A stretch of 7,616 nucleotides of DNA from a virus. Taxonomy: Duplodnaviria; Heunggongvirae; Uroviricota; Caudoviricetes. Below are positions 2,459-5,826 of the stretch, one piece after another. A program made the translations under genes and the position numbers. Under the pieces are notes generated by a model. The model made no database searches. It worked only from the letters and a program-made list of their open reading frames with translations, and was not told the origin of the DNA. The number at the start of each line of letters is the position of its first letter. Within the stretch, counting starts at the first letter, position 1. Where the stretch lies: the IMG/VR virus record IMGVR_UViG_2568526100_000007. One strand, written 5' to 3'.

Positions 2459-2639
2459 GTCGTAAGTTGAGCGAAAGACCATCGATTTTACCTTGCTAAA
2501 ACTATTCTGCTATTGCCGAGTTACCCTTTAGGTAATACACTCATCTTATAAAAGAAAGTGGTTGTTAGCCACATAGGTTAGGATGTGCGCATACTTTGTT
2601 TGTGTGCTTTTTGTGTTTTATCTGTTAACGGAGGGGAGC

Positions 2640-2867
2640 ATGCCGAAATATCTAACACTTGCCGCTCGCGCGATCCTCTCACCTGAGAAGATCATCAAAA
2701 AAATTGCAGATATAGCTTCCATGTGTGATGGAAAAGAAGCTAAGCATGAAAGTGACAAGTTTTTCATTGATAGTAATGGTTCGATGGTTTTGAATCGCAA
2801 CAACGCTGATGTGCAAAAGGCTTTCGCAGCCAATATTAAGGGATTGAGTACTAAGAAGAAGGGTTAG
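2640..2867 (+). CDS. Small basic hypothetical protein, 75 aa (cassette gene 1). Start chosen at ATG 2640 rather than the track's 2583.
   Basis: GGAGG at 2630-2634, 5 nt before ATG 2640; Lys-rich hydrophilic product (MPKYLTLAARAILSPEKIIKKIADI...STKKKG); low-GC; stop TAG 2865-2867 lies 6 nt before the next gene's ATG. Confidence 0.55.
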   Translation: MPKYLTLAARAILSPEKIIKKIADIASMCDGKEAKHESDKFFIDSNGSMVLNRNNADVQKAFAANIKGLSTKKKG

Positions 2868-2873
2868 TCTTCT

Positions 2874-3671
2874 ATGTGGGCTGCGCTGATTGTTATTGTT
2901 TTAGTTTGTGGTTATCACTATACCAACTGCCATTTGCCGTCACGATACCGTCAAAGCAAAGCGATCGGTTGGAATGCATACTTTGATGTTGCACTGAAAG
3001 GTGGTGAGTTTCTCATAAGTGGTATTCTTATCGCTGCCTTATTGGTTGTTGTTCTGTACGCTGGAATGTCACTTTGGAACATTCCAGCGTACTTGTTTGG
3101 TTGGTACGCTCCCTTTACTTTCGCCCATGACTTTCTCAAAATGCAAGTGTTTGGGTTGAGCATGTTCCCTGCTATGTCGATAGCTTTCACTATTATTGTA
3201 AGTATCGGGAAGGCATCAGAGGCAACCAAAAACCATAAAGACCCACAAAAGCGCAAGGCTATTTTTGAAGAAATTGCGGCTCATAGTGCCGTGGAAAATA
3301 TCCTTCTTGAATCAGTTGAGCGTGGATTGTTATTGTTGGTTACACTGAAGTCTCGCAAGGTCTATGTGGGGATGATTGATGAGGCACGTTTCAATCAGTT
3401 AGATACTAACACATTGGTGCTAATCCCTTTTATGTCCGGGTACAGAGATAAAGATACTCTGACTTTTTGTGTTGAGCATAATTATGTGGACTACTACCTT
3501 AGTCAGGGTATCACATTAACTTCTGAGCCATTGTCAGTTTATCAGTTTAGGCATGTGTTGCCCTTCGATCAGATCGAATCTTTTTCGCTGTTTAATGTTG
3601 AAACATTCGAGACTTTCAAGGCAGGTATTGAAGGGAAGAAGGCCACTGAAGTACAGAATCAAACAAGTTAA
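2874..3671 (+). CDS. Membrane protein of unknown function, 265 aa (cassette gene 2): about four predicted transmembrane helices in residues 1-115, then a roughly 150-aa soluble C-terminal domain.
   Basis: Hydrophobic stretches WAALIVIVLVCGY, FLISGILIAALLVVVLYAGMSLW, AYLFGWYAPFTFA and VFGLSMFPAMSIAFTIIVSIG; long ORF in AT-rich DNA, where chance ORFs are unlikely; tightly linked to gene 1; intrinsic terminator just downstream. Confidence 0.7.
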   Translation: MWAALIVIVLVCGYHYTNCHLPSRYRQSKAIGWNAYFDVALKGGEFLISGILIAALLVVVLYAGMSLWNIPAYLFGWYAPFTFAHDFLKMQVFGLSMFPAMSIAFTIIVSIGKASEATKNHKDPQKRKAIFEEIAAHSAVENILLESVERGLLLLVTLKSRKVYVGMIDEARFNQLDTNTLVLIPFMSGYRDKDTLTFCVEHNYVDYYLSQGITLTSEPLSVYQFRHVLPFDQIESFSLFNVETFETFKAGIEGKKATEVQNQTS

Positions 3672-3690
3672 GGTTGTTACCTCATTAATT

Positions 3691-3716
3691 AAACCCGCCA
3701 TTGAGCGGGTTTTTTG
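3691..3716 (+). terminator. Rho-independent terminator closing the two-gene cassette.
   Basis: Perfect 8-bp stem AAACCCGC / GCGGGTTT (3691-3698 and 3705-3712), 6-nt loop CATTGA, followed by a T-run; 20 nt after the stop at 3669-3671. Confidence 0.75.
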
Positions 3717-3833
3717 ATGCCCGAAGTGCGGTACATTAAACGCGCTGGTAGTTATTAATATCGGTCTTTCAGCTTGCTGGCTTTTTCGACAAGAGTTATT
3801 GGTATGTCACGTTAACCAGAAAAGGGAAAAGGC

Positions 3834-4031
3834 ATGCTAAAACAGCAGGATATGACCGAAACTGCCAGAGTGGTGTTTAATGAATTAAGCGTCACCGAAC
3901 CGGCGACCGTCGGGGAAATTGCGCATAATACTTACCTTTCACGCGAACGTTGCCAGTTAATACTGACCCAGCTTGTTATGGCGGGTCTGGCAGATTATCA
4001 GTTCGGTTGTTACAGACGCCTTCCTCAGTGA
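3834..4031 (+). CDS. Small hypothetical protein, 65 aa; possible winged-helix DNA-binding protein (a PapI/FaeA-like resemblance is tentative).
   Basis: ATG preceded by a purine-rich AAAAGGGAAAAGG; segment TVGEIAHNTYLSRERCQLILTQLVMAGLA resembles a helix-turn-helix recognition region; lies immediately upstream of the methyltransferase. Confidence 0.5.
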   Translation: MLKQQDMTETARVVFNELSVTEPATVGEIAHNTYLSRERCQLILTQLVMAGLADYQFGCYRRLPQ

Positions 4032-4180
4032 AGGCTTTTTTATTTGTGGTAATGGGCGGCTGGTGGGTGTTGGTAGCACCTGCCAGCCATTCGCTCATGC
4101 TTACTGGTCACAAGCGAACCACGGCCCACTGCTTTAGCGCAAAAGCAGAGTGAGCCTACCAGAGTTACGCTTACTGATCC

Positions 4181-5230
4181 ATGAAAAATACTGTAAAAAT
4201 AAACAGTGTTGATTTAATCAACGCTGATTGCCTGCATTTTATTCAGTCCCTGCCTGATGATTCCATTGACCTGATTGTTACCGATCCGCCGTATTTCAAA
4301 GTGAAACCCGAGGGCTGGGACAATCAGTGGAAGGGCGACGATGATTACCTGAAGTGGCTGGACCAGTGTCTGGCTCAGTTCTGGCGGGTGCTGAAACCTG
4401 CCGGAAGTCTTTACCTGTTCTGTGGCCATCGCCTGGCATCTGATATCGAAATCATGATGCGTGAGCGGTTTAACGTGCTGAACCATATCATCTGGGCAAA
4501 GCCGTCCGGACGCTGGAACGGGTGTAACAAGGAAAGCCTGCGGGCGTATTTTCCGGCCACAGAGCGCATTCTGTTCGCGGAACATTATCAGGGGCCGTAT
4601 CGCCCGAAAGATGATGGCTGTGAGGCGAAGGGCAGGGCACTGAAACAGCATGTGATGGCCCAGCTGATTGCTTACTTTCGTGATGCGCGCGCGGCCCTGG
4701 GGATAACGGCAAAACAGATTGCAGATGCCACAGGAAAGAAAAACATGGTGTCGCACTGGTTCAGTGCCAGTCAGTGGCAGCTACCGAACGAAAGCGATTA
4801 TCTGAAATTACAGTCGCTGTTTGCCCGGGTGGCAGAAGAGAAACATCAGCGGGGAGAACTGGAAAAGTCCCATTACCAACTGGTCAGCACATACAGTGAG
4901 CTGAACCGGCAGTATGCGGAGCTGCTGAGTGAATATAAACATCTGCGGCGGTATTTTGGCGTGACGGTGCAGGTGCCGTATACCGATGTGTGGACGCATA
5001 AACCGGTGCAGTTCTATCCCGGGAAACATCCGTGCGAAAAACCGGCAGAAATGCTGCAGCAGATAATCAGCGCGAGCAGTCGTCCTGGTGACATGGTGGC
5101 GGATTTCTTCATGGGTTCTGGCTCAACCATAAAGGCGGCTATGGCGCTTGGGCGTCGTGCAATTGGTGTTGAGCTGGAGACCGGACGTTTTGAGCAGACA
5201 GTCAGGGAAGTTCAGGATTTAATCGTTTGA
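4181..5230 (+). CDS. DNA methyltransferase, beta-class N6-adenine/N4-cytosine type (DPPY motif), 349 aa; apparently an orphan phage methylase.
   Basis: Catalytic motif IV IVTDPPYF (nt 4283-4294) near the N-terminus and SAM-binding motif I FFMGSGST near the C-terminus (nt about 5104-5127), the order typical of beta-class amino-MTases; no restriction endonuclease gene in the window. Confidence 0.85.
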   Translation: MKNTVKINSVDLINADCLHFIQSLPDDSIDLIVTDPPYFKVKPEGWDNQWKGDDDYLKWLDQCLAQFWRVLKPAGSLYLFCGHRLASDIEIMMRERFNVLNHIIWAKPSGRWNGCNKESLRAYFPATERILFAEHYQGPYRPKDDGCEAKGRALKQHVMAQLIAYFRDARAALGITAKQIADATGKKNMVSHWFSASQWQLPNESDYLKLQSLFARVAEEKHQRGELEKSHYQLVSTYSELNRQYAELLSEYKHLRRYFGVTVQVPYTDVWTHKPVQFYPGKHPCEKPAEMLQQIISASSRPGDMVADFFMGSGSTIKAAMALGRRAIGVELETGRFEQTVREVQDLIV

Positions 5231-5279
5231 AACGGATGAGATTGCAGAATTAATTACGCACCATTATTATTCTGCTCCC

Positions 5280-5355
5280 GGCCCTTTAGCTCAGTGGTGA
5301 GAGCGAGCGACTCATAATCGCCAGGTCGCTGGTTCAAATCCAGCAAGGGCCACCA
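5280..5355 (+). tRNA. ileZ: tRNA with CAU anticodon, ileX/ileZ-like (tRNA-Ile2 read via lysidine, or formally tRNA-Met), 76 nt.
   Basis: Hand-folded cloverleaf: acceptor GGCCCTT/AAGGGCC, D-stem GCTC/GAGC, anticodon loop CTCATAA, T-stem GCTGG/CCAGC, 3' ACCA; close to the recalled E. coli ileX sequence. Confidence 0.85.
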
Positions 5356-5362
5356 TCACATA

Positions 5363-5439
5363 CCGCCATTAGCTCATCAGGAAAGAGCGCCAGCCTTCGA
5401 AGCTGGCTGCGCGGGGTTCAAGTCCCCGATGGCGGTCCA
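5363..5439 (+). tRNA. argN: tRNA-Arg, anticodon UCG, 77 nt.
   Basis: Hand-folded cloverleaf: acceptor CCGCCAT/ATGGCGG, D-stem GCTC/GAGC, anticodon stem CCAGC/GCTGG with loop CTTCGAA, T-stem CGGGG/CCCCG, 3' CCA encoded. The symbol is assigned by position in the ileZ-argN-argO cluster of Stx phages. Confidence 0.85.
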
Positions 5440-5452
5440 TTATCTGCATCAT

Positions 5453-5529
5453 GCGTTGTTAGCTCAGCCGGACAGAGCAATTGCCTTCTAAGCAATCGGT
5501 CACTGGTTCGAATCCAGTACAACGCGCCA
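5453..5529 (+). tRNA. argO: tRNA-Arg, anticodon UCU, 77 nt.
   Basis: Hand-folded cloverleaf: acceptor GCGTTGT/ACAACGC, D-stem GCTC/GAGC, anticodon stem ATTGC/GCAAT with loop CTTCTAA, T-stem ACTGG/CCAGT, 3' CCA encoded. Confidence 0.85.
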
Positions 5530-5543
5530 CACTTATTTTCCCT

Positions 5544-5570
5544 GGCTCGCTTTTGCGGGCCTTTTTTTTT
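5544..5570 (+). terminator. Intrinsic terminator after the tRNA cluster.
   Basis: Stem GGCTCGC / GCGGGCC (7 bp, one G-U pair), loop TTTT, followed by nine T residues. Confidence 0.6.
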
Positions 5571-5767
5571 AAATGTCTCACAATTCAGACGGTTGACTGT
5601 TGTCTGGTTTGCGGGGAGTTTGTTAAAAGAAACTGGCATGGTGAATCCCCCTGTGCGGAGGGGCAATCAGCGAGTAGGTATATGGGATAATCGCGGATTC
5701 AGGTGCTGGTACTGAATTCACCGGGAGGCACCCGGTACCATGCAATGGCACATAGCGCCACTCTCCA

Positions 5768-5791
5768 GCCCCTCTCCGGAGGGGCTTTCTT
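5768..5791 (+). terminator. Terminator-like hairpin in the intergenic slot upstream of nanS-p.
   Basis: Perfect 7-bp stem GCCCCTC / GAGGGGC with loop TCCG, followed by TTTCTT. Confidence 0.4.
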
Positions 5792-5797
5792 GTGGGC

Positions 5798-5826
5798 AAA
5801 AAAAGCCCGCGCTGGGAGACGCGGGC
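5798..5826 (-). terminator. Minus-strand terminator-like hairpin.
   Basis: Seven A residues (a T-run on the minus strand) adjacent to a 7-bp stem GCCCGCG / CGCGGGC with an 8-nt loop; together with 5768-5791 it forms a back-to-back hairpin pair. Confidence 0.3.

Follow-up and report, generated by a model that had tools for sequence, protein, structure and literature searches.

The proteins of the Sm, LSm and Hfq families form hexameric or heptameric rings. CBASS Cap15 and the MscS-type channels have N-terminal transmembrane (TM) helices followed by a compact cytoplasmic beta-barrel, and RexA/RexB of phage lambda is a two-gene abortive-infection system with a membrane effector. In P2-like phages, the interval between gpA and the portal gene (gpA-gpQ) is an antiviral hotspot and the home of old/tin, and such hotspots also hold non-defence cargo, including partition systems and toxins (Rousset et al. 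2022, PMC9122126). In the sister hotspot of P4, six out of eight randomly chosen loci of unknown function conferred phage protection (PMC13586616).

Here we analyse a window of 7,616 nucleotides (nt) from a virus of the Caudoviricetes (IMG/VR record IMGVR_UViG_2568526100_000007), in which a first-pass annotation had drawn attention to a low-GC block with two genes, here called ORF75 and ORF265. Like prophage morons and hotspot cargo, this cassette is small (about 1.2 kb), foreign in composition, variably present and located between conserved anchors. The classical definition of a moron includes a promoter of its own, whereas no convincing promoter was found in the cassette. With lambdoid cargo such as stx, it shares a location downstream of the antiterminator gene Q. 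As in RexA/RexB, a soluble protein and a polytopic inner-membrane protein are encoded by a prophage, and loss of membrane integrity upon infection is an outcome that we propose for the ORF75/ORF265 pair too. In contrast to RexA/RexB, the size relation is reversed, with a tiny soluble partner and a membrane protein that has a folded cytoplasmic domain. The two also differ in location, with Rex being expressed from the immunity region and the pair lying in the late leader, and no sequence or fold relation between them was detected.

The Sm-like barrel predicted for ORF265 differs from described members of the Sm/LSm/Hfq fold in several respects. It is fused to three TM helices, Pfam and PDB searches revealed no sequence similarity to the LSM or Hfq families, and its invariant residues lie in the b1-b2 and b3-b4 hairpins (LKSRK, SGYRDKD) and not in Sm1 and Sm2 motifs. 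According to its structural model, ORF265 shares with Cap15 and MscS the combination of TM helices and a barrel that might serve in ligand binding and oligomerization, but both proteins were missing from its top structural matches. For CBASS, there was no PADLOC match at E ≤ 1, in a library expected to include CBASS effector models, and no cyclase or other signal-producing gene lies beside the pair. For MscS, ORF265 had no MS_channel match in Pfam, and the TM3-beta-domain unit was not among its top structural matches. Weak matches to DUF6338, an uncharacterised family of integral membrane proteins, occurred in two of 43 diverse family members (best E = 0.0012, below any curated threshold), whereas ORF265 and the other 41 members were unmatched. 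DUF6338 itself has no assigned function and received one incidental mention in the literature.

Results

Boundaries and prophage setting of the cassette

Judging from breakpoints of homology with other phages and genomes, the cassette spans ~2461-3688, which agrees very closely with the positions 2460-3716 given in the first-pass annotation, and homology to other phages resumed at ~3689 on the right. The GC content of 2461-3688 was 41.0%, against 48.3-56.2% in all 394 other 1228-nt segments of the window. The range 2583-3671, from which a foreign composition had originally been read, had 41.4% GC, which supports that claim. The onset of the GC dip was already visible near position 2200, within the 3' end of Q.

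The cassette is hosted by a stx-less, Stx-like lambdoid prophage of E. coli at yecE. Its slot is the region downstream of Q, upstream of the tRNA trio and of the stx position of Stx phages. The first-pass annotation had regarded this slot as a place for cargo and had proposed to check for variable presence at the same junction. Indeed, the cassette was found in 14 of the 5,426 complete E. coli genomes, whereas ~1,840 of them had the flanking backbone and 342 had the Q module. In related phages the slot was either empty or filled with unrelated cargo, such as a Ser/Thr kinase with a PP2C phosphatase, a DUF5677 protein or L22 of phiP27. The lysis genes are located ~3.5 kb farther downstream of the cassette, past an MTase, the tRNAs and an esterase.

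Within the cassette, a non-coding region of 179 nt (2461-2639, + strand) precedes the two genes, which are co-oriented, 6 nt apart, intact, each equipped with a strong Shine-Dalgarno sequence (SD), and annotated as hypothetical proteins in RefSeq. The initial description of a 75-aa basic protein followed by a 265-aa membrane protein proved correct, with a pI of 9.67 for the former and three hydrophobic helices in the latter. The 5' region contained no strong sigma-70 match; on the + strand of 2452-2640, none of the sigma-70-like sites reached at least 9 of 12 matches. Furthermore, a conserved cassette promoter was rejected, because the upstream regions of homologous pairs could be aligned with 2461-2639 at the SD only.

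Q module and flanking terminators

On its left, the cargo slot is anchored by the gene of antiterminator Q (1672-2367, + strand), which belongs to the 82-type family (PF06323; Pfam, 1.5e-83) and is listed as 'bacteriophage antitermination protein Q' in RefSeq. It is followed by a conserved, late-promoter-like leader (2368-2431, + strand) and a terminator, T1 (2432-2460, + strand), in agreement with the suggestion that the block lies just downstream of Q and a candidate pR'/tR'. The leader is part of the Q module and was nearly identical in two further Q modules with different downstream cargo. We infer from the sequence that it may act as the promoter pR'. Q alleles with 95-96% identity diverged at ~2401, and alleles with 85.6% identity extended to 2460. 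T1, the candidate tR' at the left edge of the cassette, comprises a hairpin (2432-2451) with an 8-bp GC-rich stem and an interrupted U-tract (-14.2 kcal/mol). The same two further Q modules had a hairpin with other stem sequences at this position.

At the right junction, terminator T2 (3691-3716, + strand) consists of a hairpin (3691-3712) and a T-run. The first-pass annotation had described it as a strong terminator closing the two-gene block. The hairpin is real (-12.0 kcal/mol), but T2 was rejected as a terminator owned by the cassette, because it is a conserved backbone element that is kept, with compensatory changes in the stem, in Stx2_EH2201, phiP27 and E24377A whatever the cargo. The cassette is bordered by terminators on both sides, each of which is part of a neighbouring module.

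Products of the two genes

ORF75 (2640-2867, + strand; 75 aa) encodes a small, basic and soluble protein, the presumed cytoplasmic partner of ORF265. The SD GGAGGGGAGC precedes its ATG at 2640. A reading of 94 aa from the ATG at 2583 was rejected, because this start lacks a usable SD and the homologues begin at the Met of 2640. Comparison of the homologues revealed a conserved core, D..G...LN..N..V. The AlphaFold (AF2) model had a pLDDT of 68, and only a conserved hairpin-helix core (residues 41-70) was predicted confidently.

ORF265 (2874-3671, + strand; 265 aa) encodes a predicted inner-membrane protein. Its AlphaFold model (pLDDT 90) combines three TM helices with a cytoplasmic beta-barrel of the Sm/LSm/Hfq type, which has the N-terminal helix and the five-stranded, strongly bent beta-sheet that define the Sm fold. 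According to the positive-inside rule, the protein is predicted to have its N-terminus outside and its C-terminus inside, which would place the barrel in the cytoplasm. The barrel bears the invariant charged loops of the family. Conservation peaked in barrel strands b1-b2 and b3-b4, in cytoplasmic loop 1 and in TM1, and the periplasmic loop was the least conserved part. In one member of the family, an H-NS DNA-binding domain is attached at the C-terminal end, which agrees with the placement of this end in the cytoplasm, where it can meet nucleic acid.

Distribution of the gene pair

The ORF265 family comprises ~2,700 clusters at 50% identity, ranges from Enterobacterales to Acidobacteriota and has no Pfam or NCBIfam model. 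A co-oriented ORF of 45-115 aa ended at most 45 nt upstream in 135 of 154 family loci, and in 120 of these 135 loci it was homologous to ORF75. Within the homologous pairs the median gap was 6 nt, and the median length of the non-coding DNA upstream was ~218 nt. The two genes are thus a conserved, tightly coupled pair across Proteobacteria and beyond.

The pair repeatedly occupied prophage cargo and defence slots. Q genes from three families unrelated to each other (PF06323, PF03589 and PF06530) were found immediately upstream of it. In eight of 68 representative loci, it lay between the P2 gpA and portal/terminase genes, a hotspot position that applies to homologues and not to the copy in our window. 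Pfam matches to GPA, portal, terminase and GPO confirmed the surroundings of these P2-type pairs. The pair of strain CFT073 appears as 'hypothetical + hypothetical' in Table S5A of PMC9122126, adjoining a Hypoth_Ymh protein, and no match in Table S2 of the same study places the pair among the systems assayed by Rousset et al.

The neighbours of the pair were mostly unrelated, with 85 Pfam families among 100 neighbours. A Drt3a-type (DRT) reverse transcriptase was the immediate neighbour in two representative loci and an integrase in three, and a defence-island signal among the 100 neighbours was rejected as weak, being limited to these cases. In four Bryobacterales genomes, the pair occurred in a repeated chromosomal setting adjoining a GT2 glycosyltransferase and ksgA, which looks more housekeeping-like than mobile cargo.

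Searches for a known function

We searched profile, structure and literature resources for a known function of the two proteins. The HMM and PDB sequence searches yielded no lysis, structural or known-defence-model match, so the initial impression that neither product belongs to a characterised family still stands. ORF75 had no family match in Pfam, NCBIfam or PADLOC, its PHROGs matches were weak and of unknown function only, and the HMM searches detected no known domain, be it that of an antitoxin, a DNA-binding protein or any other kind. Likewise, ORF265 had no match in Pfam (E ≤ 0.1), NCBIfam or PADLOC, and matched PHROGs of unknown function only. Neither its single sequence nor the family profile gave a usable sequence match in the PDB, and a structure search of BFVD returned only weak Sm-like matches.

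With respect to defence, none of the 5,027 models of PADLOC-DB v2.0.0 matched ORF75 or ORF265 at E ≤ 1, and the DefensePredictor supplements contained no accession match for the pair. Its protein accessions were not mentioned in the main texts of the papers searched, and literature on DUF6338 and on Sm-like proteins combined with anti-phage activity contained nothing relevant. The pair did not resemble the newly named P4-hotspot systems Bandua, Aernus, Toga, Reve, Crouga and Hailong. Profile and word searches for the family returned only the names 'hypothetical' and 'transmembrane protein', and the only matches of a tblastn search among cultured phages were in SEN4/SEN5 and a Klebsiella prophage, where each of them carries the annotation hypothetical. 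Neither protein had a functional match to holin, spanin, SieB or Imm in Pfam or PHROGs. A lysis or structural role was rejected in view of this lack of homology and of inconsistent positions. In P2-like phages, the pair lies at a large distance from the lysis genes.

Discussion

Our main reading, to which we assign a probability of roughly one half, is that 2461-3688 constitutes a mobile accessory module of two genes ('moron') that was acquired by horizontal transfer and probably acts at the membrane in phage exclusion or abortive infection. The module is inserted in the leader of the late operon, between tR' of the Q module and the backbone terminator. Its recurrence in cargo and defence hotspots of prophages makes the pair a good candidate for a new anti-phage system, and the genomic context, with pairs in the old/tin hotspot of P2 and a DRT neighbour, lends support to the defence idea.

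The module would act at the inner membrane and thereby protect the lysogen or the induced cell from other phages. ORF265 may oligomerize via its Sm-like domain, as rings of six or seven subunits are typical of Sm, LSm and Hfq proteins, and the resulting gated assembly would contain a bundle of 18-21 TM helices. ORF75 could be a sensor or inhibitor that docks on the conserved cytoplasmic face. Upon infection, the complex would then switch, such that either the membrane is depolarised or permeabilised (abortive infection) or genome entry is blocked (superinfection exclusion). The concentration of conservation on the cytoplasmic side speaks for sensing and gating in the cytoplasm rather than for masking of the surface. 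The oligomerization, pore formation and ORF75 binding that we infer here are purely conjectural. Transcription might start from the Q-antiterminated pR', supplemented in the lysogen by read-through of T1 or a weak internal promoter. Because no strong promoter was found in the cassette, expression may be confined to the late phase. It is possible, but rather doubtful, that the pair represents a new class of system, in which a membrane-anchored Sm-like ring would form a gated inner-membrane pore or a block to DNA entry, controlled by a dedicated partner of 60-90 aa that might detect the nucleic acid of a phage on the cytoplasmic side.

Several features of the pair would also suit other functions. 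The tight coupling of a small upstream ORF to a larger downstream ORF, the patchy, mobile distribution among unrelated neighbours and the embedding of the effector in the membrane recall a toxin-antitoxin or addiction module. The toxin, located in the membrane, would then be ORF265, with ORF75 as the antitoxin encoded upstream of it. Their primary role would be to stabilise the prophage or mobile element, although this could overlap with exclusion. We consider this reading unlikely. ORF75 has no domain typical of antitoxins and ORF265, with its three TM helices and folded cytoplasmic domain, is unlike the known small membrane toxins. To a similar degree improbable is a late function in service of the phage itself, in which the pair would be expressed only with Q during its own lytic cycle and would modulate the inner membrane, possibly to time lysis, to keep out superinfecting phages during growth, or to aid assembly or release. 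Such a role agrees with the position of the pair in the late operon, behind pR'/tR' and lacking a strong promoter of its own, with its recurrence directly after three families of Q genes and with a homologous pair within a late tail-gene cluster (locus L174). However, nearly all close relatives lack the pair and are viable phage types, P2-like phages carry it in the old/tin slot at a distance from lysis genes, other copies reside in chromosomal, non-phage-like settings, and similarity to the holin, spanin, SieB or Imm families is lacking.

Alternatively, the pair could be lysogenic-conversion cargo that serves host physiology at the membrane, for instance as a channel for ions or solutes, or as an envelope-stress device, with an MscS-like design. 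In overall architecture, the three TM helices and cytoplasmic Sm-like barrel recall the MscS-type channels, and the GT2 glycosyltransferase beside the pair in the four Bryobacterales genomes and the chromosomal-looking context of another locus (L172) point in the same direction. Nevertheless, we rate this reading as quite improbable. Finally, none of the sources searched offered an annotated function or experimental support for the pair, as would be the case for non-functional, hitch-hiking DNA with decaying or spurious ORFs. In contrast, both ORFs are intact with strong SDs, the AF2 model of ORF265 is of high confidence, and the pair is conserved from 100% down to ~25% identity across phyla, including its invariant motifs. 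This conservation effectively refutes the hitch-hiking explanation.

Returning to a membrane-acting defence module as the preferred reading, protection against phages by this pair would add a widespread and compact (~1.1 kb) system, with parts unlike those in current defence catalogues, and would provide a function for a large orphan family. If the new class exists as outlined above, ORF265 would be the first immune effector with an Sm fold. A membrane-tethered Sm-like domain would put a fold that is familiar chiefly from RNA biology to an uncommon use. Our results show that the lambdoid leader downstream of Q behaves as an exchange hotspot, like the gpA-portal locus of P2, and that the same cargo moves between both. 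The interval from Q to the backbone terminator offers a practical anchor for mining further systems in Stx-type phages.

Prophage context

A lambdoid prophage of E. coli AR_0372, integrated beside the DUF72 gene yecE, was 100% identical to the window over the region tested. A DUF968 gene (314-1309) and RusA (1322-1681) precede the antiterminator gene Q (1672-2367; PF06323, 1.5e-83 in Pfam). Q is followed by ORF75 (2640-2867) and ORF265 (2874-3671), the two cassette genes, and then by genes for a 65-aa winged-helix-like protein (3834-4031; phrog_331) and an N6/N4 DNA methyltransferase (4181-5230), three tRNAs (5280-5529; Met-CAT, Arg-TCG and Arg-TCT) and a nanS-p-type SASA esterase (6019-7616) truncated by the window end. 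Holin, lysozyme, Rz and terminase genes come after the esterase. This layout is that of Stx-converting phages, minus stx.

The tRNA trio and the nanS-p-type esterase are hallmarks of Stx phages, found here in an stx-less prophage; the Met-CAT tRNA is annotated in RefSeq as tRNA-Ile, i.e. as ileZ-like. Directly after the trio, at the stx position of Stx phages, lies an Rfam STnc100 sRNA (5607-5797, + strand; 134 bits; gathering score 47). At this site the RefSeq annotation instead has a partial, minus-strand pseudo-CDS (23226-23351 of locus L001, i.e. window 5625-5750).

Edges and distribution of the cassette

The low GC content noted in the first-pass annotation was confirmed, with 41.0% in 2461-3688 versus 48.3-56.2% in all other 1228-nt windows of the sequence. 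The cassette indeed holds two co-oriented genes separated by 6 nt, encoding a 75-aa basic protein (pI 9.67) and a 265-aa protein with three modelled membrane helices. A strong SD (GGAGGGGAGC) stands ahead of ORF75, and RefSeq labels both products hypothetical protein.

At the left edge, other E. coli Q modules with 85.6% identity could be aligned up to position 2460, while Q alleles with 95-96% identity diverge near 2401. At the right edge, Stx2 phages, phiP27 and ~1,840 E. coli genomes become homologous to the window again at ~3689. These breakpoints delimit a mobile unit of ~2461-3688, essentially the same as the interval 2460-3716 proposed earlier.

The sequence that follows Q (TAAATCGCGTACATTT.GTGTAAATCTGATATTTTGC...) is kept in two other Q modules with different cargo; each of these has a hairpin at the corresponding position after it, but with another sequence. 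Both observations support the candidate pR'/tR' assigned to this region, where the terminator T1 lies at 2432-2451 (-14.2 kcal/mol). The terminator T2 (AAACCCGCCATTGAGCGGGTTTTT; 3691-3716) is a strong hairpin (-12.0 kcal/mol), as annotated, but it does not belong to the cassette that it was thought to close. Stx2_EH2201, phiP27 and E24377A all retain it, with compensatory changes in the stem, whatever lies upstream; on this comparison T2 is a backbone element outside the cassette. Moreover, 24 nt of T2 are identical in locus L098 (about 5700-5735), directly after a lambda-type Q (PF03589) and upstream of a homologous gene pair, which suggests that terminators may act as recombination joints for cargo exchange.

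The cassette was present in only 14 of the 5,426 complete E. coli genomes, in line with the variable presence that had been proposed as a check. Thirteen copies were at least 99.6% identical; the remaining copy, with 96.4% identity, adjoins a Q region of only 87.5% identity. The position of the cassette is empty in Stx2_EH2201, carries a 409-aa gene of unknown function (L22) in phiP27, and a Ser/Thr kinase with a PP2C phosphatase in E24377A. The expected cargo slot downstream of Q is a genuine cargo hotspot, and the earlier interpretation of the cassette is supported.

A conserved gene pair in many settings

A profile search with ORF265 against 1.84 billion representative proteins recovered 2,733 clusters at E<=1e-3, including 1,698 at E<=1e-10, nearly all of 240-300 aa; the only names given to members are 'hypothetical' or 'transmembrane protein'. 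Pattern scanning yielded 121 confirmed loci from GTDB species genomes and 237 from IMG/VR, distributed over Enterobacterales, Vibrionales, Pseudomonadales, Neisseriales, Burkholderiales, Sphingomonadales, Acidobacteriota and others. Of 154 loci, 135 have a co-oriented ORF of 45-115 aa whose end is no more than 45 nt from the large gene. Iterated HMM searches identified 120 of these 135 small ORFs as homologues of ORF75, with the common core D..G...LN..N..V, and several of those without a match showed a similar pattern by eye. Across loci, the median gap within the pair was 6 nt, with a median of 218 nt of non-coding sequence upstream. Neighbours beyond the pair had almost nothing in common, with 85 Pfam families represented in 100 flanking proteins.

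The pair directly follows Q of three unrelated families, namely PF06323 in the window, PF03589 in L098 and PF06530 in locus L100. Eight of the 68 representative loci have the pair flanked by P2 replication gene A on one side and by portal, terminase and scaffold genes on the other. This interval is an antiviral hotspot as defined by Rousset et al. (PMC9122126), with old and tin as its cargo in P2. The pair of CFT073 (WP_001292590 and WP_000529102) is listed there as 'hypothetical + hypothetical' beside a Hypoth_Ymh protein (Table S5A, PMC9122126) and is absent from the table of tested systems (PMC9122126). In this P2-like hotspot (L171, 6307-7458), the pair is followed by the TIGR02391/Hypoth_Ymh family protein. 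The latter is probably a separate cargo unit, because it is found in the hotspot even where the pair is missing (Table S5A, PMC9122126).

A homologous pair (88 aa and 269 aa; L174, 6720-7810) lies inside a myovirus-like prophage, with baseplate J and UCP028438 genes on one side versus tail-fibre and tail-fibre-assembly genes on the other; an Ail/Lom outer-membrane protein gene lies just past these genes. Elsewhere the pair adjoins Drt3a-type reverse transcriptases (two loci) or integrases (three loci), and some settings look chromosomal. Four Bryobacterales MAGs (L057, L058, L064 and L071; about 2590-6730) share a repeated chromosomal neighbourhood, in which ksgA (RrnaAD), encoded on the opposite strand, comes before a double GT2 glycosyltransferase of 770-790 aa, then the small ORF and finally the large one. 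This arrangement is unlike the mobile contexts of the pair elsewhere.

Predicted proteins and expression

As first annotated, neither product matches a recognised family. ORF265 had no match in Pfam, NCBIfam or PADLOC and no PDB relative by sequence, and no family was assigned to ORF75. ORF265 matches phrog_3630 (function unknown; 1.6e-59). Its AlphaFold2 model, built from 51 homologues (mean pLDDT 89.7), has membrane helices at about 2-19, 46-66 and 97-117. Cytoplasmic helices come next, then a five-stranded barrel (153-240), and a helix forms the C-terminus. The charge distribution (positive-inside rule) predicts an outside N-terminus and a cytoplasmic barrel. Conservation peaks on the cytoplasmic side, with invariant residues in the b1-b2 (LKSRKVYxG) and b3-b4 (SGYRDKD) hairpins and a conserved GWxAYF motif in cytoplasmic loop 1, and is lowest in the periplasmic loop. 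The ORF75 model is confident only at its core (residues 41-70; a beta-hairpin and a helix). P0215, a distant ORF265 family member of 322 aa, has a C-terminal H-NS DNA-binding domain (residues 289-316; 38 bits, above the Pfam cut-off), a hint that contact with DNA is possible at the cytoplasmic end.

No sigma-70-like site with at least 9 of 12 matches was found on the + strand in 2452-2640, nor did we find conservation among upstream regions of homologous pairs. Transcription of the pair would be Q-dependent, passing through T1; for any expression in the lysogen, the polymerase would have to read through T1, which has an interrupted U-tract, or start at a weak promoter.

Possible function

The comparisons show a mobile pair of tightly coupled genes, one for a small, basic and soluble protein and the other for a polytopic membrane protein that has its conserved surface on the cytoplasmic side. 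The cassette is very probably a mobile accessory module, and we put the probability that the pair is anti-phage at about 0.5. ORF265 might oligomerise through its Sm-like domain, in the manner of Sm, LSm and Hfq proteins, gathering its transmembrane helices into a gated assembly, while ORF75 would bind the conserved ORF265 loops as sensor or inhibitor. Infection by another phage would then switch the complex, which would depolarise the membrane (abortive infection) or block genome entry (exclusion). Such a ring or pore mechanism specifically is doubtful.

A toxin-antitoxin or addiction module and a late membrane function serving the phage itself both seem unlikely, and a channel in host physiology slightly more so; none of these explains the hotspot positions better than an anti-phage role does. 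The prior for such a role is raised by the sister P4 hotspot, in which six of eight randomly chosen loci of unknown function were protective (PMC13586616).

By position and behaviour the pair is ordinary hotspot cargo of prophages, but its content matches no described system and bears no resemblance to the newly named P4-hotspot systems. It was not found in PADLOC or in the DefensePredictor supplements, nor were its accessions found in the main texts of an incomplete literature search, so that an earlier description is possible. Its unusual element is the membrane-tethered Sm-like domain. The pair is a candidate defence or exclusion system of novel families, and its function is a well-motivated and cheaply testable hypothesis.
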